A stretch of 64,000 nucleotides of DNA, taken from an uncultured Gammaproteobacteria bacterium. GTDB taxonomy: Bacteria > Patescibacteriota > Patescibacteriia > VMEV01 > CAYQCH01. Location: contig CAZDCG010000001.1 in assembly GCA_964503955.1 (NCBI GenBank), forward strand, positions 316,210 through 380,209, written 5' to 3'. Shown here piece by piece: positions 5,372 to 63,548 of this stretch (position 1 is the first letter of the stretch; every line of letters starts with the position of its first letter). The notes below the pieces were generated by a model, which did no database searches, had not been told where the DNA came from, and saw nothing but the letters and a program-made list of their open reading frames with translations. Made by a program: the position numbers and the translations under genes.

Positions 5372-5447
5372 GGACCGGTGGTGTAGCGGTTAACATGCCT
5401 CCCTGTCACGGAGGAGATCGCGGGTTCGATTCCCGTCCGGTCCGCCA
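5372..5447 (+). tRNA. tRNA-Asp (anticodon GTC)
   Basis: GGACCGGTGGTGTAGCGGTTAACATGCCTCCCTGTCACGGAGGAGATCGCGGGTTCGATTCCCGTCCGGTCCGCCA. The cloverleaf, CTGTCAC anticodon loop, GTTCGATTC T-loop and encoded CCA are very close to E. coli tRNA-Asp. Confidence 0.9.
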
Positions 5448-6628
5448 CGAAGAGCCCCGTATTCACGGGGTTTTTCGTTTTGGGGCGCGGGCGTGTTGCC
5501 CACGGGTTGCCCAAGGATTGCTGAAGTCGGCGCCAGTGTCGGCGTGAGCGGCCCCAACTGGAAGACGAAGGACGATACCTCTCGCGCCGGCGAGAGCGGC
5601 CGACGGTCAAGCCGATCGACGAACTCCTTGAGGCGAGAGGGCTCGAGGTGGCTGTAGCGCATGGTGACCCGAATGTCACTATGGCCCAGCAGTTCCTGCA
5701 CGACCTTGAGGTGAGCGCCCGTTGCCACGAGGTGCGAGGCGAAGGTGTGGCGCAGTACATGCCACCCGACTTTGCGGAGGCCGGCAGCGGCGCACGCTTG
5801 CTTGAGCACGCGCGCCATGGCGTCTTGGTCCGAGTGCTTGCGGCCCGCGTCTTGCCCGAAGACAAAGCCCCTGCGGTGCGGCCATGCCCTCAGTGCTTCC
5901 TTCACGTCCTCGCTGAGCGGCACGTGGCGGATCTTGTTGCTCTTGGGAGGGCCGAGGCGGCGTCTCACCAGTGCCCGCCTCACCGTCAGCAGGCTCCCCT
6001 CGAGGTCGACGTCGGACCAGTCCAGCGCCAGCAGCTCTCCCAGGCGGAGCCCGGTGCGCATGGCGACGAGCACGACTCCACGCCAGAACGTGTCCTTCAT
6101 GCTCCGCAAGAGACGTTCGCTCTCCTCCAGCGTGAGGAAGTCGAACGCCTGAGGTGGAACGGGAAGAAGCCGGATCTTCGGGCGGCGGTCGAGCTCGCCC
6201 CACTCCTCGGCAATGCTAAGAGCCCGGCCGAGGGCGGCCAGGTAGTTGTTGACGGTCTTGGGCGCATAACCCTCTGCGCGCCTCGCCGCCTTGAAGCTCT
6301 CGATCAGCTTGGGGGAGATCTCATCGAGCCCGCACTCCCCGAAGAAGGGCAAGAGCTGACGGTCCAGAATAGACCGCTTCGTGCGCTGCTCGGAGTGGCG
6401 GTTGTTGGGCACGACGTACTCTCGGTACCACCGCTCGGCGAACTCCGCGAAAGTGGTGGCCTTGACGACAGGTGCGTCTGGATCAAAGCCGAGCGCGAGC
6501 TGGCGGCGGAAGTAGGTTTCGTACGCGGCAGCGCCCGCCCGGCTGCTTTCCGGGCTCTTGCGGCGATAGCGGATGCCAGCGTGGCGGAAGTCAATCCACC
6601 AGCGGTTGCGGATCTTGCGAGCGCTCAT
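5390..6628 (-). CDS. int: tyrosine-type site-specific integrase (phage-integrase family)
   Basis: Core-binding and catalytic domains with R...HVLRHTFASHLV (HxxR)...RVTMRYSHL (catalytic Tyr). The ORF runs with no stop through the att core and into the tRNA on the opposite strand, so the last ~60 codons are probably not authentic or reflect the recombinant junction. Confidence 0.9.
   Translation of the reverse strand: MSARKIRNRWWIDFRHAGIRYRRKSPESSRAGAAAYETYFRRQLALGFDPDAPVVKATTFAEFAERWYREYVVPNNRHSEQRTKRSILDRQLLPFFGECGLDEISPKLIESFKAARRAEGYAPKTVNNYLAALGRALSIAEEWGELDRRPKIRLLPVPPQAFDFLTLEESERLLRSMKDTFWRGVVLVAMRTGLRLGELLALDWSDVDLEGSLLTVRRALVRRRLGPPKSNKIRHVPLSEDVKEALRAWPHRRGFVFGQDAGRKHSDQDAMARVLKQACAAAGLRKVGWHVLRHTFASHLVATGAHLKVVQELLGHSDIRVTMRYSHLEPSRLKEFVDRLDRRPLSPAREVSSFVFQLGPLTPTLAPTSAILGQPVGNTPAPQNEKPREYGALRGGPDGNRTRDLLRDREAC
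5424..5448 (+). repeat. attL core (within tRNA-Asp 3' end)
   Basis: Exact 25-nt match to 9326-9350. Confidence 0.85.
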
Positions 6629-6894
6629 GGGGTGTTGTCGTCAACGGAGCCCACGCGGTGCTTGGCCAAGTAGGCCGCCAGGTCCTCCCGCGAGAAGCGC
6701 AGACTGCGGAGTACGCGGTGGAAGGGCAGCCGGCGCTGCTCCACAAGTCTGTAGACGCTGGCCCTGGAGATACCCAGCTGGCGGGCGACCTGGTCTGGCG
6801 TGAGGAGAAGGGGCGGCAAGGCGTGGTCCGGACGATGATGCCGTGGTTGGGCCGAATTGCGCAAATCCGGACTGTGGATAAGATCGTTGAGCAT
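6625..6894 (-). CDS. xis: excisionase/AlpA-like helix-turn-helix DNA-binding protein
   Basis: LLTPDQVARQLGISRASVYRLVEQRRLPFHRV is the HTH_17/Xis signature; overlaps the int start by 4 nt (xis-int operon). Confidence 0.7.
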   Translation of the reverse strand: MLNDLIHSPDLRNSAQPRHHRPDHALPPLLLTPDQVARQLGISRASVYRLVEQRRLPFHRVLRSLRFSREDLAAYLAKHRVGSVDDNTP

Positions 6895-7074
6895 GTTTTA
6901 TGTGGCTAAGGCTAGCGGAGAATCTATGTCCTCCCGCCCGGCAGGGACACGAACCTCGGTCGGTGTCCCTGCCAGGGTGACGGCGGCGCGAGGTGCGGCC
7001 GCACAGGCGCGAGGGCGCCCGGGAGGTGGCCAGCGGTGAGCTGGCCACGCCCGTGCCCGGGCGCTTCCGACCGG

Positions 7075-7635
7075 TCACGAGCTTGGCCTTCTCGTAGGCG
7101 GGAGAATCTTCTGCTCAATCAGATATGCCGCACCCACGGCTGCAGCGTCGAACATGTTGAGCCAGAAGGTCTCCTTCCACGCGTGGGTCTGGATCTTGTA
7201 AATCGCTAGTTCGGGGTAACGACGAATGATCTCGGTGGCGACAGTGGGCTTCTTGGCGTTTCCGTTCAGGCAGAGAATCGCTCGCGCTGAGCGCGGGGCA
7301 TACTCGACGACCAAGCCGTCGACGACGACGACCCGCTGCTCTCCGCTAGTGCGGACCGTCACCCGGTCGTTCACGACGACGGCGTCGCCGCTTCCGGGCT
7401 CGAGATCGAAGAACGTCTGCTGCTCGTCTTGGCTCACCCGGCAATCGTGCCTTACGGCCTCGTTGCCGCAAGGCAATAACGGGACACGTTCTGGTCCGCG
7501 CAATTGCCCGAGCGCTCCCGGGCCAAGCCCGCCTGTAGCGGCATCAGCAGGCGCTACGAGCCGCCGGCGGAGTCGAAAGGCGGACACATTGCGGTCCGCA
7601 GCTACCCGGCTGCCAGCCCTGCTACGACAGGGCAT
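7075..7635 (-). CDS. island cargo, hypothetical protein (start uncertain; the N-terminal ~60 codons may be non-coding)
   Basis: Only non-low-complexity frame in GC-rich DNA; the C-terminal ~110 aa (VVVNDRVTVRTSGEQRVVVVDGLVVEYAPRSARAILCLNGNAKKPT...IYKIQTHAWKETFWLNMFDAAAVGAAYLIEQK) is globular-looking; no family recognised by eye. Confidence 0.35.
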   Translation of the reverse strand: MPCRSRAGSRVAADRNVSAFRLRRRLVAPADAATGGLGPGALGQLRGPERVPLLPCGNEAVRHDCRVSQDEQQTFFDLEPGSGDAVVVNDRVTVRTSGEQRVVVVDGLVVEYAPRSARAILCLNGNAKKPTVATEIIRRYPELAIYKIQTHAWKETFWLNMFDAAAVGAAYLIEQKILPPTRRPSS

Positions 7636-7975
7636 GTCAGGAGGTCTGGAGTCTGGAGGAGGTGCGCGCCCACTTCCGGCGCCGCCTCGACGCCTACGTC
7701 TGCGAGGTCATGACCGAGCGCGCGTCCGCGCGCGCGGCGCTGGCCCCCAGGAAGGCCGACGATCGCAGCGCGACACTCCCCTACGGCTGCGGGACCTACT
7801 GGCTGGTCCGCTTCCACGGCGCGTCATGCGAGCACGCCCCGCCGGCCTGAGCGGCGAGCCGGGCCGCCGCGACGCGAGGCGCCCGGCGCGAGCGAGCTCG
7901 ATTGCGCGGCGCGCAGGCCGAGCGTGGATCGACGGAGCGCTGGAGCTCGCGGACGGCGCGGCAGTACCTGCCCAC

Positions 7976-8611
7976 TCACTGACCAGGACGAGGCGGAGCA
8001 TGCGCGAGAGCACTGAACTCGCCTACGTTCTGCATGGCATAATCAATAAGGCAATCATAAACGCGATCGCACTCGCCCTCAAAATTTAGAAACACCCTAC
8101 CCACAACGGTATCCTCCAAGCGCCCGTCGTATGCCCCGATACTCTCCAAGAACTCTCGACGTGCGTCGAGGTCTAGATGGGGATTTGGCCCTGGGAATGC
8201 GGCTACCGCCTCCGCCAAGTAACGAGCGGCATCGCGTGCCCCTATCTCCTCCAATGCCTGCACAAAAACAGAATACGACGGATTCCCGCCCCCGGCGAGA
8301 AGGTAGCAGTAGGCGTCGAGCAGAAACGGCTTGGCCTGGTCGAAGTCGAGCCAGATCAGGGCGTCAGCAATTTGACACCGCTCGCCAAAGTCGGCAAAAT
8401 CAAGAACGCTCACGTGGGGTGTTTCCTCGTGGGCCAGGATCCAGTTTACGCTGGACCTGGGGTAGCAGGTGGCTCCACCGCCTGCTGCCCGAACCCAGCA
8501 CTTGATCCCCCTGGCAGCCCTGGCGCAGTCAGGGGGTTTTCGTTGCAGGAGGGCGTGATCGATAGGCCGAGGGTGCTGCACCCGGCAAAAACAACGGACA
8601 GCATGGCACAA
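7976..8611 (-). CDS. island cargo, hypothetical protein (likely starts at the internal GTG near VSVLDFADF; ~145 aa)
   Basis: Conserved-looking region ...LDFADFGERCQIADALIWLDFDQAKPFLLDAYCYLLAGGGNPSYSVFVQALEEIG...; the N-terminal part of the long ORF is Cys/Arg-rich junk typical of wrong-frame GC-rich DNA. Confidence 0.4.
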   Translation of the reverse strand: MCHAVRCFCRVQHPRPIDHALLQRKPPDCARAARGIKCWVRAAGGGATCYPRSSVNWILAHEETPHVSVLDFADFGERCQIADALIWLDFDQAKPFLLDAYCYLLAGGGNPSYSVFVQALEEIGARDAARYLAEAVAAFPGPNPHLDLDARREFLESIGAYDGRLEDTVVGRVFLNFEGECDRVYDCLIDYAMQNVGEFSALAHAPPRPGQ

Positions 8612-8727
8612 ATAACGGCGATGACGGCTACTTTGCTAGTCGAGCCACCACTCTCGCGGCCAGTGGTCTGTGCATAGCCCTTGACAGTTAAGGAATTATG
8701 AACCAATCTCTGCCTAGAGTCGCTCAC
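8446..8727 (-). CDS. possible small lipoprotein (signal peptide + FAGC lipobox), island cargo
   Basis: Alternative frame overlapping the 5' end of the previous ORF: ...KVAVIAVICAMLSVVFAGCSTLGLSITPSCNENP... has a classic n-h-c lipoprotein signal; ends just before the probable GTG start of the downstream gene. Confidence 0.25.
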   Translation of the reverse strand: MSDSRQRLVHNSLTVKGYAQTTGRESGGSTSKVAVIAVICAMLSVVFAGCSTLGLSITPSCNENPLTAPGLPGGSSAGFGQQAVEPPATPGPA

Positions 8728-9325
8728 CTTTGTCCTCCCGTGGAAGGGTGCGCGATCCGCTGCTCCGGGAGCACCAGATCCGCCACCTGTGGCCTTGCTC
8801 CAGGTGCGTCAACACCCGGGGCTCGCGGCTCAGCGGCCCCCGAGGTCTACAGCTTCGGGGGTCTTCTCGCGCGAAAACCGATCTGACGATTCCGTGTGTC
8901 GGGCCCAGAGTCAACTGATTTCCCAACGACAGAATGAAAACCTCTCCACACCTTCTCAACGTCCGAGGCAGGGGCGCGTAACGCGCTGTTCTGTCAGGCC
9001 TTGCTCTTCGCGCGCGGTGGAGAGCAGGGCGAGAGTGACCAGGGCACAGACGGACAGGAGTCGCCTCCCTCGCTCCCGCTGCGAGATCGTCTTGTGGGAC
9101 GAGAGAGCAGTCGGACGAGATCCCACCGAGTCAGCGACTTGGCACCTGTGGCCGGTCTGGTCGTCCATGAGCTCCGGCGTTGACCGTTGCCCACCGATTG
9201 CCCAGGAAGTGCGGATTCAGCGGGGAAACAGCGCTGAACTGACCTGAGCTGAGAATCTCGATTCTGAGCTAAGGTTAGAGGAATTCCGCTAGAGCTAGCG
9301 ACGCTTCCGCTTTCGCCTCCTGCGC

Positions 9326-9350
9326 GTTCGATTCCCGTCCGGTCCGCCAC
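9326..9350 (+). repeat. attR core (duplicated tRNA-Asp 3' end)
   Basis: Exact 25-nt match to 5424-5448 with no tRNA body upstream of it. Confidence 0.85.
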
Positions 9351-14067: not shown

Positions 14068-14120
14068 AAACGACACTTACGAAAGCAGCCCCTCGCCGTT
14101 TCCGGCAAGGGGCTTTGCGT

Positions 14121-14522
14121 TTAGGCGACCTGGGAATCGCCATTCTCGTGCGTGCCGAGAGCACCCGCGAACAACTCGCTGACCACGAACTCCCATTCGT
14201 TGCCATGCCCGTGCAATGCTCCGCAAATGGTCAGCTTCTGCGTGGCAACAAGCTGCTCTCCCTGCTTCTTCCATCCGACAGGCTTCTCATGATGAATCAC
14301 AATTTCAGAGAACGATTCACCCTGCACGATCATTTCCCGGATCGCCTGCAGGAACTTGTGCCGAACCGCTTGGTCGCGGAAGACATCGTAGGGCCGCTTA
14401 TAGCAGGTAAATGTACCTGCCTTTTCCCGGCCGCTAAAGCGGCAGCGAAGCGAGAGTTCGCGCTCTGGTTTGATCACCACCTGCAGCGGACGCTCCGTGT
14501 CGATTTTCATGTGAAACAGCAT
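14121..14522 (-). CDS. hypothetical protein, paralog A of a tandem pair (133 aa)
   Basis: Strong SD (AGAGGGGGA); shares MLFx...F.CYKRPYDVFRDQ...EKPVGWKKQGEQ...TICG...EWEF with the neighbouring ORF. Confidence 0.5.
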   Translation of the reverse strand: MLFHMKIDTERPLQVVIKPERELSLRCRFSGREKAGTFTCYKRPYDVFRDQAVRHKFLQAIREMIVQGESFSEIVIHHEKPVGWKKQGEQLVATQKLTICGALHGHGNEWEFVVSELFAGALGTHENGDSQVA

Positions 14523-14729
14523 TGATCCCCCTCTTGAGCTGAGTAAAGATCATAGGCGCGATTATAGCTTTCGTCAAGGGGTGTTCAGCCCTAAAAAGAG
14601 AGCATGGCGGACTTTGCATGAGCGCTGGTGATTTTTAGGGCCGATTGATCCGGCACCGGCTGGTAAAACATTCCGAAATGTCTAAAATATGAAACCCTCC
14701 GCTATCCGTCTAGACAGCGGAGGGAGGGA

Positions 14730-15128
14730 TCAGGCGGCGGACATGGCGGGAACAGCGTTTTGCTCCACGCAGCCTGCAGCCAGATCTTCCAGAGTGATAA
14801 CCCACTCCTGTTCTCCGGGCTCGATCCGCCCGGCGATGGTGATGGTGTTGGAGGGCTTGCCGTCCTGCCCCCAGCCGACTGGCTCCTGGTCGTAAAGCTC
14901 GCAACGGAATGCGCTCTGCTCGGGCAGAAGCTTGCGCACATGCTCGACCAGCTGGCGGCGCAGAGGCTGGCGCTTCAGCACGTCGACGTAACGCCGAAAC
15001 GCGAAGAAACTGCCGGGAACCGGCTTGGCATCCACCAGGCATAGCTTGCGCCGCAACTTGCCGATGCGGCTGGAACAGAGGCAGAAGAGAAATCGGGTTT
15101 CCGGATCGGGACGCGTATAGAAGAGCAT
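14730..15128 (-). CDS. hypothetical protein, paralog B of the tandem pair (132 aa)
   Basis: SD AAAGGGG; MLFx...FFAFRRYVDVLKRQ...QEPVGWGQDGKP...TIAG...EWVI aligns with paralog A over the full length. Confidence 0.5.
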   Translation of the reverse strand: MLFYTRPDPETRFLFCLCSSRIGKLRRKLCLVDAKPVPGSFFAFRRYVDVLKRQPLRRQLVEHVRKLLPEQSAFRCELYDQEPVGWGQDGKPSNTITIAGRIEPGEQEWVITLEDLAAGCVEQNAVPAMSAA

Positions 15129-15739
15129 GACGGCCCCTTTCTTATTTTTGCCGAATCAACCATCATGCGGATGCAAACGATAAACGTCAACGAAACAGGG
15201 CCTTGTTTTTGACAAAATGTGATGACGAAAGCCCGTGGGGGGGCCAGGTTTCTAAAACAAACGAACTTTTCAGACTCATAGAAAATGACTATCTTCACAT
15301 CGTCACCCCCGCGGAGAAAGTTACTCTTTGCGAAGCAAAGTCTAAACATCGCCAGCGGGGGTCTCATTCTTTAAGAGGCATCGAACAGCCCCCCTCACTC
15401 AGTTGATCTCTTTCGATGCTTGATCCCGTCCCCCCTAAACAGGGGGAAGAGTAGGTGGAGGTATACGGAGAAGCGGAGGGATTATAAAGCCTATTCGGGC
15501 GCGGGGCTCCCTCCTTCGCTAAAGGCTTCGGCGGGCACGCTGTCTCCGCCCGGCACTATTACGTGAAATGGTAAAAATGCTTCACTGTATTGAGCTCCCA
15601 AAGGAAAGATCTGAAACCTGAATTCTGAATTCCGGATCTCTATCTGAGGCGGCTCAGAGTCAGAATTCCGATCCAGATTTCAGAATCCAGAGAGAATCTT
15701 CATTCTGACTGCCAAACGATTCCCTAAGAAAGCACGAAC

Positions 15740-15785
15740 CCCGGCCGCTCCTTGAGAGAGCAACCGGGGTCGTTTGTTGCACTTG
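15740..15785 (-). terminator. rho-independent terminator of the lipoprotein gene (ccccgg...ccgggg + U-rich)
   Basis: On the minus strand, the hairpin gaccccggttgctctctcaaggagcggccggggt is followed by tcgtgctttctt. Confidence 0.5.
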
Positions 15786-15788
15786 GTG

Positions 15789-16874
15789 CTAGGGCTTGAA
15801 CTCCCAGACCTCGTGCTTGTCAGCATCGTAGAAGTAGGTCACGCCGTTATGCGGCTGGCCATCGTCCGAGACGCGGAAGTAGCTGTCGACGACGAACGGA
15901 GCGTCTGCCCCGCTCTGGCGCGTGAAGCTGTTGTCTGCCAGGTCGTAGACGTGCACCCGGTAGCCGGACGGCTGCGCGTCGTCCCTGAGCAGGAAGATCC
16001 TGCCGTTTCCGGCGAAGAGCACATCGCCGCTGATGCCGTCCGGGTGCGTGGCCCCCAGCGTCACCATCGGCTTGGACATGGCCAGCGTGGCGGGCAGGTC
16101 AATGCTCACGACGCGGCGGTTCTCGTTGACCTGCGCCTGTGACAGGTAGTACCCGCCGCCGAGGATGACGAAGGTGTCACCCACCACCGTGCCCAGGCCG
16201 CGGTGCGGGATGGCATCGAGGTCCTGCGTGGTGATCACGTCCCAGGTGTCGGTGCTCTCGTTGAACACATCCAGGCTGGCCTGCCGTTCGAGCTCGAAGC
16301 GGCTGATGTAGCCGTGGCCGGCCAGCAGGCGGTACATCCGCCCGTTGTAGACGAAGTAGTAGCCCTGCTCGTGGGCCGAAGCCGACAGCTTGACCCAGCC
16401 GTTCTGGCCGAGCCGCAGCATGGCCCCAACCGGCGCGGGACTGGGCGGCCACGCCAGCGAGGGCTGGATGGCGTAGAGCGCCTGCGCGGTTCTGAGCAGG
16501 GTCGCGCCGCTGTTCTCCAGGACATTGGGCACGACCATGCCGCCGAGCGGCGAGGAGGCGCCGTTCAGGTTGAACTTGGCGGCCTTGCTCGACACGTCCT
16601 CACCGACGGGGTTGGACGGGTCGTTCACGATCCCGCCCATGATGTGGACCTCCCGCAGCACCGGGTCGAAGTTGAACCCGGGCCCGGTCCAACCGATCTT
16701 GGCCGAACCGGCGACGAGCGAGGAGTCGAGCGTGGCCACCTTGGTCCAGGTGGCGTTGATGACGTTGGCCGTCGTGACGGCCGAAGTGCCGGGCGAAGTC
16801 GAACGGCTGGTATTGCAGCCGGCCAGGACGATCAGCAGCCCGCAGAGAGCCGCGGAAGCGAAAACGTGTCGCAT
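15789..16874 (-). CDS. GC-rich lipoprotein, hypothetical (possibly beta-propeller-like)
   Basis: Lipoprotein signal MRHVFASAALCGLLIVLAGC; TTGACA-17-TATTTT promoter and GGAGAGGGG SD upstream; GC content clearly above neighbours. Confidence 0.6.
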   Translation of the reverse strand: MRHVFASAALCGLLIVLAGCNTSRSTSPGTSAVTTANVINATWTKVATLDSSLVAGSAKIGWTGPGFNFDPVLREVHIMGGIVNDPSNPVGEDVSSKAAKFNLNGASSPLGGMVVPNVLENSGATLLRTAQALYAIQPSLAWPPSPAPVGAMLRLGQNGWVKLSASAHEQGYYFVYNGRMYRLLAGHGYISRFELERQASLDVFNESTDTWDVITTQDLDAIPHRGLGTVVGDTFVILGGGYYLSQAQVNENRRVVSIDLPATLAMSKPMVTLGATHPDGISGDVLFAGNGRIFLLRDDAQPSGYRVHVYDLADNSFTRQSGADAPFVVDSYFRVSDDGQPHNGVTYFYDADKHEVWEFKP

Positions 16875-18805: not shown

Positions 18806-18916
18806 TTTGATCCATTGCCATCCAAGGCGATTGGCCATGCTAAACCTATGTCTGCGTTTATAGATTAACGAGTGTACGCTAGAGAAATCCTCCGATTCCG
18901 TTTATACTATACTCAT

Positions 18917-19255
18917 ATGGCAAAATGGATCTCATTTCTAAGTCTTCTTCTGTTCAGCGGCGCGAGTTGCTCCATGGTTTCGGCTCCGCAGAAATTTGCC
19001 TGCGGGTATAATGGCCAGCGCTATGAAGTAGGCGCGCAATTCCCATCCACGGACGGATGCAATACCTGCACCTGCGGAGAGAATGGCCAGATCGCCTGCA
19101 CGCAAACAGCCTGCGCGAATGAGATTCTTGGGCAGACCTGTCAAACTGCAGCAGATTGCGCGAATTCAGGAATCGACACATCATTCTGTGCAAGCGGTGC
19201 GTGGACATGCCAGAATGCCCAGTGCGAATTCGCATGTGAAGAAGTCGCTTTGTAA
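18917..19255 (+). CDS. small secreted cysteine-rich protein (12 Cys), protease-inhibitor-like Cys spacing
   Basis: Signal peptide MAKWISFLSLLLFSGASC; core C-N-T-C-T-C-x3-G-x3-C-T-x3-C spacing resembles the pacifastin/VWC-type disulfide-knot pattern. Confidence 0.5.
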   Translation: MAKWISFLSLLLFSGASCSMVSAPQKFACGYNGQRYEVGAQFPSTDGCNTCTCGENGQIACTQTACANEILGQTCQTAADCANSGIDTSFCASGAWTCQNAQCEFACEEVAL

Positions 19256-28957: not shown

Positions 28958-29950
28958 CTATATTGTGAGCCAGAGCTGCGCGCCGTGAAGCGCGAACCCC
29001 GAACTCAGGATGAGCCAGAAATTATCAGCCGGAGAGAGCATATCCCCCGGCCTTGGCTCTTTTGGCCACTGCGGAATCAGCTCCGCCAAAGCCGTTGCCA
29101 CGCCTACGAAAAGCGCGCAGACAATCACCCTGGCATCCGGGCCATAGAACCAATGCAGGACAGTAAACGAAATTACGGCCGCGATCGCAAAGCAGGTCAG
29201 CGACCCTTCGACCGTTTTGCTACCAAACGGCCACTTCACTTTGCCATAGCGTTTGCCGATCACGCGGGCGAATGGATCCGCCCAGGCTGTGATAAAACAG
29301 GCTGACGCCAGCACCCAGAGCGGGCACAGCACCCAGATAATGCCAAGCCCGGCCAGGAAGTCGAGCGACGAAGACCGGGTTCCGATCTCATGCGGCCGGA
29401 CCTTGATCCGATTGGCCGTCCAGACCATCCAGCGCGTGAGCGGCCAGAAGATCCAGGAACGCATGAACGCTTTCAACCTTGGCCGGCAGCGCAAAAGCTC
29501 ATACCAGGCAAAGAGCGCGAGCGATCCAGCCAGCAGCCATCCGCTCAGCTGATGGGCCGAATAGCTCAAGCCAAGTTCCGGGCTGACCGGCCAGGGGATC
29601 TGCCGGGACGCCAGCACCGAAATGACTGAGGTAAAAGCGAGCAGCAATGACACGCCGAGCAGCTGCTTTGCGTCCAACCAGGGCCTACTGGGCTTGAAGA
29701 AGCGGCCGATGACGACAGCGCAGCCAACCCAGAGAGCAAATGCCCCAAGAGCAACCAAGACATGACGGACCGGCAACACAACTTCGCCGGAAACGGTATT
29801 CGGTAGAAGGGCGGCAAGCGCCCCGCAAACCGAGATCGCGATTCCATGGAACCAAAAGCGCACCCACTCCTTGATGAATGGCTGCGGCACTGAAGGCGGG
29901 GCAGGCGCATCCGCCGCCTGATCCGGGAACATCCGCGGTGGCATGCGCAC
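28958..29950 (-). CDS. polytopic membrane protein of the CTP-dependent polyprenol/lipid kinase (dolichol kinase/CdsA-like) superfamily
   Basis: C-terminal GKRYGKVKWPFGSKTVEGS resembles the KR..G..K...KT.EG motif of DolK/phytol-kinase-like enzymes; ~8 TM segments. Confidence 0.4.
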   Translation of the reverse strand: MRMPPRMFPDQAADAPAPPSVPQPFIKEWVRFWFHGIAISVCGALAALLPNTVSGEVVLPVRHVLVALGAFALWVGCAVVIGRFFKPSRPWLDAKQLLGVSLLLAFTSVISVLASRQIPWPVSPELGLSYSAHQLSGWLLAGSLALFAWYELLRCRPRLKAFMRSWIFWPLTRWMVWTANRIKVRPHEIGTRSSSLDFLAGLGIIWVLCPLWVLASACFITAWADPFARVIGKRYGKVKWPFGSKTVEGSLTCFAIAAVISFTVLHWFYGPDARVIVCALFVGVATALAELIPQWPKEPRPGDMLSPADNFWLILSSGFALHGAQLWLTI

Positions 29951-61190: not shown

Positions 61191-62900
61191 ATGTCCTACA
61201 ACGAACTTATCAAACAAATCGTCGCGCAACAACCGTCATCCAGAAACGAGATGCAGACGATCATTCGTACACATATCAAATCACGCGGAGCATCCTTTCC
61301 GCGTTTTTCGCATTTGCTTGAAGCCTATCGATCCTTGGTGGCCGGCAAGGAGCTTGAAGCGCAGCCCTGGCTTGAGCCGCTGCTTATCAAACGCGCGATC
61401 CGCACGCTTTCGGGCGTAGCGCCTGTCCATGTCATGACGGCACCGCTTGGATGTCCGGCCAATTGCCTGTACTGCCCGAATGAGCCGGGCATGCCCAAAA
61501 GCTATCTTTCCAATCAGCCGGGTTCCATGCGCGCGATTCTCAATGACTTTGACCCGTACAAACAAGTCACCATGCGGCTGCGCGCGCTCTATCAGAACGG
61601 ACACCATCCCGAAAAAATCGAATTGGTTGAAAATGGCGGAACATGGACCGCGCTGCCACGTCGTTACCGCACCTGGTTTATCACCCGCTGCTATCAAGCT
61701 GCCAATGATTTTGATCCTCAAGACTTTGTCAAAACAACGGACTTCATTCCGTCTAATAATTCCCGTTTGACGATTTTAAACCGGCTCAAAGAACAGCCTG
61801 ATCATCTGCTGAAAGCATCGCTGCGCTTGCATGACGAAGACGACGAGGATTTGCTTACCGAACTTTTTGCCGCGCAAAAGATGAATGAAACAGCCCGCTA
61901 TCGCATCATCGGCATCACGCTTGAAACCCGCCCTGACTGGCTGGCTGATGATGAAATCCATCACCTGCGTCTCATGGGCTGCACCAAGCTTGAGATCGGC
62001 GTACAAAGCATCAATGAAGAAGTATTGAAATGGAATAATCGCGGACATGGCGTAGAGGCAGTTATTAACGCGACGCAAGCCTTGCGCGACGCGGGCTTTA
62101 AAGTCGGCTACCATATGATGCCGGGGATGTTTAAGTCCACACCGGAATCAGACAAACAAATGTTTGTGGAGCTCTTCGCCAACCCCGCGTTTAAGCCGGA
62201 CTTTCTCAAAGTTTATCCTTGCGTTGTCGTGCAAGAAGCTCCTCTGTATAAACTCTGGGAGCGCGGTGAGTATAAACCCTATGAAGGAGACGAACTCATC
62301 GACGTACTGATTACCATTTCACAGACCTTCCCCCGCTATTGCCGCGTCGCGCGCCTCATTCGCGATATTCCTTCAGAAAGTATTTCGGGCGGGAATAAAA
62401 TCACCAATCTCAGAGAAGTCGTTGAGCAAAACATGCGCCAGCTTGGAATTGCTTCGCAAGATATCCGCGCTCGCGAAGTCATGGGCAATGTGCAGAATGA
62501 AGAACTGGCGCACAATGATCTCGTGTATGAAACCATCAACGGCGAAGAGCATTTCCTCAGCTTTGACGGGCAGGATTCCGACAAGCTCTACGCATTCCTG
62601 CGCTTGCGGCTCCCGCAAAGCAATTCCCATTTGATCAAAACAACCTTTCCCGAGCTGATGAATGCCGCGCTGATCCGCGAAGTGCATACCTATGGCAAGC
62701 TCGCGCGTATTGGAAATGACGATGAGACAAAGCAGGCGCAACACAAAGGACTTGGCAAACAGCTGATGGAAAAAGCCGAAGAGCTTGCGCGCAATCGTGG
62801 TTATAAAAAAATCGCCGTCATCGCCGGCGTGGGAACGCGCGAATATTATCGAAAATTCGGCTACGAGCTTGAGGGGACATATATGGTGAAACCGCTCTAA
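61191..62900 (+). CDS. Elp3-like radical SAM + GNAT acetyltransferase (tRNA U34 modification family)
   Basis: Radical-SAM Cys cluster (GCPANCLYCPN), a large radical-SAM core, and a C-terminal GNAT fold (...[41 protein letters not shown]). Confidence 0.8.
   Translation: MSYNELIKQIVAQQPSSRNEMQTIIRTHIKSRGASFPRFSHLLEAYRSLVAGKELEAQPWLEPLLIKRAIRTLSGVAPVHVMTAPLGCPANCLYCPNEPGMPKSYLSNQPGSMRAILNDFDPYKQVTMRLRALYQNGHHPEKIELVENGGTWTALPRRYRTWFITRCYQAANDFDPQDFVKTTDFIPSNNSRLTILNRLKEQPDHLLKASLRLHDEDDEDLLTELFAAQKMNETARYRIIGITLETRPDWLADDEIHHLRLMGCTKLEIGVQSINEEVLKWNNRGHGVEAVINATQALRDAGFKVGYHMMPGMFKSTPESDKQMFVELFANPAFKPDFLKVYPCVVVQEAPLYKLWERGEYKPYEGDELIDVLITISQTFPRYCRVARLIRDIPSESISGGNKITNLREVVEQNMRQLGIASQDIRAREVMGNVQNEELAHNDLVYETINGEEHFLSFDGQDSDKLYAFLRLRLPQSNSHLIKTTFPELMNAALIREVHTYGKLARIGNDDETKQAQHKGLGKQLMEKAEELARNRGYKKIAVIAGVGTREYYRKFGYELEGTYMVKPL
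62798..62900 (+). repeat. elp3 3' end, copy 1 of a ~92-bp direct repeat
   Basis: ttataaaaaaatcgccgtcatcgccggcgtgggaacgcgcgaatattatcgaaaattcggctacgagcttgaggggacatatatggtgaa is repeated at 63638-63730 with ~6 mismatches and one 1-nt deletion. Confidence 0.8.
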
Positions 62901-62951: not shown

Positions 62952-63548
62952 TCAAACCGCGATATCACCACCCTCTCTTTTGTCCCAACCCCCGTCACGC
63001 AGGTACGTGAAGCCTGTTCCGTTATCGAATCTGAACTGGCCGAATCGATGGAGAGACAACAGCAGTGGAGGGACAGCAAGCTCTGCAAGATCCCAATCAG
63101 CTATCTGAGCGGCCTCTACTGCATCGATGCACTTCAGGCCGGCGTCACGTGCGAGCTCTCGGTCACCGCCTCCGCAAAAGACAAGGTCAACTAAGCAGAC
63201 ATCAGTATGTGGCAGCTCAGGAATCTCAAACTCCAAAATAGAGTGCATCACAGGAAGAGGCAGGTCGTTAAACATGCCACTATTCTCTAGGGCTTTGAGG
63301 CACTCTAGTTCGGCCACATTAACCTGATGACAGGCTAGCGACTCCCGAAGATCCCATTCCCTCAAGACCCTTACCGCACTACCCATTTCTGAGCCTAGGT
63401 GCTTGGTACTCTCATCAATGTCTCGCATGCGTTGAACACAAGCAGCGCTCCAGAGATCGCGCAGCTTCAGAAACGGCTGCACGTCGTAGCCGGATGAGGC
63501 CTCATGCAGCGGCACTGAGAACGAAGCGTTTGTCAGAAAAAAATACAC
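62952..63548 (-). CDS. hypothetical protein carried on the 740-bp insert between the elp3 3'-end repeats
   Basis: 198-aa ORF; no recognisable family. Confidence 0.4.
   Translation of the reverse strand: MYFFLTNASFSVPLHEASSGYDVQPFLKLRDLWSAACVQRMRDIDESTKHLGSEMGSAVRVLREWDLRESLACHQVNVAELECLKALENSGMFNDLPLPVMHSILEFEIPELPHTDVCLVDLVFCGGGDRELARDAGLKCIDAVEAAQIADWDLAELAVPPLLLSLHRFGQFRFDNGTGFTYLRDGGWDKREGGDIAV

Follow-up and report, generated by a model that had tools for sequence, protein, structure and literature searches.

Two short tandem paralogues in a patescibacterial genome, placed by homology in an undescribed protein family

What are two small, mutually similar genes doing side by side in the genome of an uncultured member of the Patescibacteria, and are they the toxin and immunity partners that such an arrangement can suggest? 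They lie in a stretch of 64,000 nucleotides (contig CAZDCG010000001.1, positions 316,210 to 380,209), called the window here in its entirety. An earlier note, made from the letters alone, had described them as a diverged tandem pair and proposed a toxin/immunity or enzyme/regulator duo. Both open reading frames (ORFs) are present where that note had put them, on the same strand and separated by 207 bp, where about 200 bp had been given:

14121..14522, minus strand: gene A, 133 amino acids (aa), short-form paralogue, downstream copy
14730..15128, minus strand: gene B, 132 aa, short-form paralogue, upstream copy

The pair represents a derived form, not seen before, of an undescribed family; among known kinds, the BECR/RelE-like small alpha/beta proteins come closest to that family. 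Sequence profiles indicate that A and B belong by homology to this unnamed family of ~180-aa proteins, found almost exclusively in Patescibacteria, the candidate phyla radiation (CPR).

A and B are paralogues and the frames of both are intact. BLASTP aligns them with 53.5 bits (E-value (E) 5e-15; 31/125 positions or 25% identical, 49% positives), and the alignment is collinear over residues 1-122 with just two short gaps, both in-frame; the MLF., PVGW, TI.G, and EW motifs coincide, so the tandem paralogy with shared motifs that had been proposed along the length of the proteins is confirmed. GC content by codon position shows the periodicity GC1>GC2<GC3 in both genes, and the probability of no in-frame stop in same-composition shuffles is 0.0036 for A and 0.024 for B, or ~9e-5 jointly. 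Synonymous sites are saturated (proportion of synonymous differences, pS, 0.744; third-position identity 0.33), and the duplication is therefore old. The comparison of nonsynonymous with synonymous change that the earlier note recommended could be run in part: the proportion of nonsynonymous differences (pN, 0.53) is below pS, but the rate ratio dN/dS is not estimable at this saturation. The survival of two intact, collinear frames across such divergence argues for maintenance by selection. Polymorphism is uninformative, all six sample contigs being identical, and no third or degenerate copy is present in the 660-bp spacer between B and the adjacent lipoprotein gene or elsewhere in the window.

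The remark that the pair could not be assigned to a family remains true for curated libraries, but profile searches do reach an unnamed family. Neither A nor B has a match in Pfam, NCBIfam, PADLOC, PHROGs, or the PDB sequences, the family members found later have none in Pfam (11 members) or in PADLOC and PHROGs (34 members), and PDB sequence-profile searches started from 2, 11, and 34 sequences found no relative. Matches of the pair or family to TyeA (E 0.11) and PDC-M30A (E 0.051) were dismissed as noise. A word-indexed search of 5.8 billion clusters with single proteins returned the query proteins only, recovered from six contigs of one sequencing project that match the window at 100% identity across 3.5 kb. 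When 1.84 billion representatives were scanned exhaustively with HMMER, a profile of the A+B pair gave four further matches. Three of these, the repeat proteins P0003, P0004, and P0006, were rejected; they match profile positions ~78-128 only (87-123 for P0004 and P0006), by a short W..G..TI.G pattern summed over repeats (5 each in P0004 and P0006, 37 in the unrelated repeat protein P0003), and P0004 and P0006 match the FG-GAP model, which A and B do not. The other, P0005 (178 aa), is a true relative where the first ~88 residues are concerned (E 3e-9 against A and 8e-7 against B). Adding P0005 to the profile brought in nine more proteins, mostly of 176-181 aa, and 27 family loci came from scanning a single genome for each GTDB species. 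About 25 of the 27 are labelled Patescibacteria (Parcubacteria, Paceibacteria, Adler-, Kaiser-, and Uhrbacteria, and metagenome-assembled genomes (MAGs) labelled "Saccharibacteria"), and two MAGs bear labels outside Patescibacteria. The link is not circular, since a family profile built without the window proteins still finds A (4.5e-11) and B (1.6e-3) among all six-frame segments of the window. Profile-profile comparison by hhalign gives a probability of 96.9% with nine family sequences and 97.3% (E 2.6e-11) with 34, and aligns window residues 6-121 with family residues 6-155.

Relative to this family, A and B are truncated and have lost conserved residues as well as a leader RNA that is described below. 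Full-length members (e.g., P0005 and P0008; loci L013-L039) carry the blocks TCFRG..LAGNF, PVGWSST, F.PN.RS.GLRV, AP.T..T.V, and HSIYPG.DIGEL.GDV..REG.VFFDW.HPG, and A and B are ~48 aa shorter. Two deletions are shared by the pair: a segment of ~28 residues after GW, with F.PN.RS.GLRV (two to three beta-strands in the model), and the C-terminal ~27 residues, with DIGEL..GDV..REG.VFFDW.HPG. As the same two deletions occur in both copies, truncation preceded duplication. Of the 42 family-conserved columns (conservation of at least 85% across 34 distinct members), 13 survive in A and 8 in B, and the two proteins differ from each other at most of them. The conserved positions lost include R24, N40, Y152, P153, D156, R167, E168, and H177; those retained include L25, C29 (in A only), G39, F41, G87-W88, T132, and G154. 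The family shares with A and B an N-terminal beta-hairpin, two helices, a strand ending in the invariant GW, and two long strands after it, and like them it has no signal peptide apparent by eye and a gene richer in GC than the host locus. The earlier note had asked whether homologues always occur in tandem, and they do not: the family is single-copy in 28 of 28 loci, and only this organism has two copies, both short. The short form was found in no other organism among ~15 billion proteins.

The fold of the full-length proteins can be predicted with far more confidence than that of the pair. An AlphaFold2 model of A from a two-sequence alignment is unusable (pLDDT 33.7), while the model of P0008 from an 11-sequence alignment has a pLDDT of 95.7 and a pTM of 0.88. 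The order of elements in P0008 is beta-beta-alpha, a loop with CFRG..AGNF, alpha-alpha-beta, further strands, and a short C-terminal helix and strand. Foldseek searches of PDB and BFVD gave nothing at E<=0.001; the best structural analogues are 2pd0, HigB2, PfiT, RelE, ParE, YafQ, YoeB, RegB, and MafB2, with PAS-like domains interleaved. Among the closest known systems are the BECR-fold small RNases, which include the RelE/ParE/BrnT/HigB type II toxins and the CdiA-CT RNase domains, and the modelled family resembles BECR/RelE-type small RNases at the level of fold, a resemblance that is not proof of homology. The structural-genomics hypothetical protein 2pd0 (Cryptosporidium parvum cgd2_2020; 9% identity, rmsd 3.4 A) has no established function and carries a purine-site prediction only (PMC3892921), so no function can be transferred from it. 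Of these elements, the alignment shows the N-terminal hairpin, the two helices, the strand with GW, and two long strands still present in A and B, and the inserted strands and C-terminal motif gone; a core of RelE/BrnT (BECR-like) topology, reduced to beta-alpha-alpha-beta-beta-beta, is a possible description of what remains, rather less than an even chance in our estimate.

The full-length genes are preceded by a conserved leader of ~60 nt with the consensus tGG-TA-TCCGTG-CCA-nn-CACGGA-CCTG-AA-CCAG-(loop)-CTGG-CAGGAGG-(4-9 nt)-start. We propose that the RNA folds into an H-type pseudoknot, the 5' TGG pairing with the CCA of the P1 loop, and that a bipartite helix comes immediately after it and hides the first half of the Shine-Dalgarno sequence (SD). 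In this arrangement 97% of cells are paired, against 33-41% with slid partners, and compensatory double changes occur at six pairs, a result reached by 0 of 500 shuffles; the pseudoknot pair 12-25 is U-A six times, C-G three times, and G-C once. The covariation result is similar on 16 sequences. When single sequences were folded by minimum free energy, P1 and P2 were recovered in L014 and L019 and missed in L027. The leader has no match in Rfam 15, even at E<=10. With covariance model R1 it is found immediately ahead of the family gene in 16 of the 28 loci, in none of 28 control loci, and nowhere in the 64-kb window. Four of the sites are as follows, and 12 further loci have one:

L014, 5940-6005: leader
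L015, 5941-6005: leader
L019, 5937-6002: leader
L018, 1624-1690: leader

Small pseudoknot riboswitches and SD-sequestering operators likewise have a compact H-type pseudoknot and then a helix burying the SD; the leader differs from them in that its 5' tail, not its 3' tail, pairs with the loop. The homologue leaders are single and not repeated. The leader is a candidate for a riboswitch or autoregulatory operator of a new kind, confined to this CPR gene family.

Several other features were seen at the family loci. In most CPR genomes the family gene is richer in GC than its locus (L020, 0.50 vs. 0.37; L034, 0.52 vs. 0.37; L030, 0.50 vs. 0.36), so the parent gene looks like a self-contained cassette of promoter, leader, and ORF; such a composition might also mean that the family as a whole moves horizontally or is subject to an unusual constraint on its composition. 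In 7 of 28 loci a tRNA gene, not always of the same identity, lies no more than ~1.2 kb from the family gene (L024:5783-5857, L039:6571-6655, L037:6716-6789, L034:6623-6697, L032:4344-4415, L015:5230-5301, and L014:4836-4907), and in four of the seven the distance is 15-220 bp. This may be a mild enrichment, of a kind consistent with insertion next to tRNA genes. SAM-I riboswitches within a few kb of the family gene (L013:2468-2572, plus strand; L018:3288-3395, minus strand) are probably unrelated to it.

In the window itself, the expression signals of A and B are of a different kind, and each gene appears to have its own:

14527..14533, minus strand: SD of A, GAGGGGG, 4 nt before the ATG; anti-SD duplex -11.1 kcal/mol
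15134..15140, minus strand: SD-like site of B, AAAGGGG, 5 nt before the ATG; duplex -7.0 kcal/mol
14549..14577, minus strand: predicted sigma-70-like promoter of A, TTGACG-17-TATGAT, 10/12 matches in a consensus scan
15162..15190, minus strand: predicted sigma-70-like promoter of B, TTGACG-17-CATGAT, 9/12 matches in a consensus scan
14695..14724, minus strand: intrinsic-terminator-like hairpin and T-run directly after B, 13 bp with 8 GC
14088..14113, no strand assigned: GC-rich 10-bp hairpin between the convergent A (minus) and M23 peptidase (plus) genes, read from the sequence

The claim that the pair has strong SDs unlike the neighbouring core genes is borne out, as the anti-SD duplex of core genes in the window is mostly ~0 kcal/mol and reaches -5 or below in only 7 of 43 other genes tested apart from A and B. 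The companion claim of a GC-rich patch fits B (GC 0.62; GC at third codon positions (GC3) 0.76) and the neighbouring gene at 15789-16874 (GC 0.67), but is weaker for A (0.56; GC3 0.69), the core genes having ~0.50 and 0.50-0.60. With a promoter-like site for each gene and a hairpin with a T-run between them, two transcription units are predicted, with leaders of ~25 nt for A and ~25-30 nt for A and B taken together. The hairpin at 14088..14113, which escaped the T-run rule of the terminator scan, is a probable bidirectional terminator. The upstream regions of A and B have no homology past the promoter hexamers, no repeats were found upstream of either gene, and the spacers around them show no evident ORF for a small partner.

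The gene of the window that is most foreign in composition lies right beside the pair:

15129..15788, no strand assigned: 660-bp spacer separating B from the lipoprotein gene; no convincing ORF
15789..16874, minus strand: predicted lipoprotein gene, 361 aa, lipobox LAGC; GC 0.67, GC3 0.91, SD -8.2 kcal/mol

The ORFs wholly contained in the spacer are of at most 67 aa, and it has no Rfam match and no remnant of a third paralogue. The lipoprotein gene has promoter-like and terminator-like sites of its own; its product has sub-threshold Kelch/beta-propeller matches only and no sequence relative in PDB. The genes that flank this region, for a membrane spermidine-synthase-like protein, an M23 peptidase, and an ABC transporter, are host-like, so A, B, and the lipoprotein gene stand out from them as a compositionally foreign islet of ~2.8 kb (14.1-16.9 kb). 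No direct repeats bound the islet. Metagenome searches for an empty site or synteny with the adjacent M23 peptidase gave 80 loci, none of them above 48% identity or with conserved synteny, and the best matches sit on groundwater-type contigs. With neither repeats nor a syntenic empty site, composition alone speaks for acquisition, and the insertion is undatable and unbounded; on that footing, the islet was probably acquired horizontally.

The same window holds other foreign-looking DNA. An integrative element of 3.9 kb (window 5420-9350; GC 0.60-0.69) lies at tRNA-Asp (5372-5447), bounded by 29-nt attachment (att) direct repeats (5420-5448 and 9322-9350) that are 97% identical and correspond to the tRNA-Asp 3' end. 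It encodes a tyrosine integrase (5390-6628, minus strand) and cargo ORFs without a family match, one being weakly DMP19-like, and its presence means that this genome accepts foreign DNA. SD-bearing ORFs occur amid the SD-poor core genes at 7226-8089, 14121-16874, 28958-29950, and 62952-63548. Most are GC3-rich too, with that at 62952-63548 being core-like in GC3, and 28958-29950 and 62952-63548 have no Pfam match. This distribution suggests that several small islets were acquired from SD-using donors.

Three further observations concern other genes of the window. A 127-aa Cys-rich protein (18872-19255, plus strand) has a match to the Pacifastin_I protease-inhibitor domain (E 2.7e-7), of a family known chiefly from arthropods and unusual in a bacterial genome. 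An ELP3-like protein (61191-62900, plus strand), of a type uncommon in bacteria, combines radical SAM, Radical_SAM_C, and GNAT acetyltransferase domains. PheS and PheT are 50% and 44% identical, respectively, to those of a Parcubacteria MAG. On sequence evidence, which comprises these values, the phyletic spread of the family, and the groundwater-type contigs with the best M23 matches, a patescibacterial host is probable.

How the pair arose and what it does can be weighed against this background. The parent would be an unnamed ~180-aa cytoplasmic protein under tight translational control, probably an RNA- or nucleotide-directed enzyme or a toxin-like accessory gene. A common ancestor of A and B would have lost the internal ~28 residues, the C-terminal motif, the leader with its pseudoknot and sequestered SD, and most of the invariant polar residues; this short form would then have been duplicated anciently, with both copies maintained by selection. 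A and B would now be expressed constitutively as independent genes that keep only the binding scaffold, possibly as a homo- or heterodimer, after arriving with the lipoprotein gene on a small foreign islet. On balance we favour this account, in which two acquired, independently expressed genes represent a side branch of the family that was shortened, duplicated long ago, and kept by selection, and that is probably non-catalytic; the more specific proposal of a non-catalytic binding role is doubtful. The functional suggestion of the earlier note is partly supported overall, but its toxin/immunity side is disfavoured, and A and B are quite probably not a toxin-antitoxin (TA) pair. Neither gene matches the toxin models of Pfam, NCBIfam, or PADLOC. 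No conserved neighbour or partner gene was found in 28 homologue loci, where the family gene is often flanked by opposite-strand genes; the isoelectric point (pI) of family members ranges from 4.5 to 8.5, and no association with defence genes, phages, or plasmids was found, with phage records, plasmid records, and IMG/VR contigs all lacking the family. All of this weighs against a classical toxin. Polymorphic toxins of the CdiA-CT/CdiI kind differ from the pair, which consists of stand-alone proteins of 132/133 aa with no large exoprotein gene nearby, and type III TA systems (ToxIN-like) differ as well, there being no RNA repeats upstream of A or B and only a single leader in the homologues. 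A duo of paralogues, with a minimal RelE/BrnT-like toxin neutralised by its degenerate copy through heterodimerisation, would suit a tandem, equal-sized pair on a foreign islet in which B, with 8 conserved positions to A's 13, is the more degenerate, and the best structural analogues of the parent family are indeed type II and contact-dependent inhibition (CDI) RNase toxins. However, A and B are homologous, and we know of no TA module in which toxin and antitoxin are homologues; their promoter-like sites are separate with a hairpin and T-run between them, no TA or defence model is matched, the parent family is without a partner gene, both proteins have lost most of the family-invariant polar residues, and their pI is near neutral. 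Such a duo is quite improbable. Less probable still is a scheme in which the parent and its leader form a new kind of self-contained, RNA-controlled toxin-like cassette that travels between CPR genomes, and A and B are leaderless, catalytically dead decoys or antidotes against incoming active copies, a form of immunity built on paralogues; it likens the parent to a type III TA system, but with a single cis leader, as a riboswitch-gated or self-RNA-neutralised BECR-type RNase.

The losses themselves invite two other explanations. If A and B were functionless remnants, truncated and decaying copies that happen still to be open, the absence of the C-terminal motif, internal segment, leader, and most invariant residues would be expected, as would the failure to find the short form in any other organism among those billions of proteins. 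Against decay, the frames have remained intact and collinear, with in-frame indels only, at a pS of 0.744, the joint chance of both being open is very small, pN is below pS, and each gene still has its strong SD, its promoter-like site, and a hairpin downstream. Because the truncations predate the duplication, moreover, the short form has lasted through a long divergence, and we regard remnants as unlikely. It is similarly unlikely that A and B are still-active small enzymes, standalone RNases with a remodelled active site that are compact equivalents of the family. The core beta-alpha-alpha-beta-beta-beta elements and the retained positions listed above are in favour of activity, and active sites in the RelE superfamily are notoriously variable; but 29 (A) and 34 (B) of the 42 conserved positions are lost, among them nearly all the conserved charged or polar ones, the two proteins differ from each other at most of these positions, and the loss of the parent's leader control is unexpected for an active toxin. 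GC-rich DNA does give long spurious ORFs, and several overlap this region, yet the possibility that the ORFs and their similarity are chance products of such sequence is negligible: it is refuted by the A-B BLASTP, family-profile, and profile-profile results, and the GC periodicity and the MLF starts with SDs also stand against it.

A pair without known relatives can now be placed as a derived branch of an uncharacterised, CPR-specific family, with the toxin/immunity reading disfavoured, in an SD-poor genome that carries several small GC-rich, SD-bearing islets, apparently acquired. The full-length proteins have a very confident predicted fold and no clear structural relative. While nothing in the window itself is mechanistically surprising, the leader RNA of the full-length relatives, which lies outside it, is the main lead. 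At ~60 nt and with no Rfam match, this candidate regulator is a tractable experimental handle on a poorly characterised CPR family, for which A and B, without the leader and the motifs, offer a natural loss-of-function comparison.
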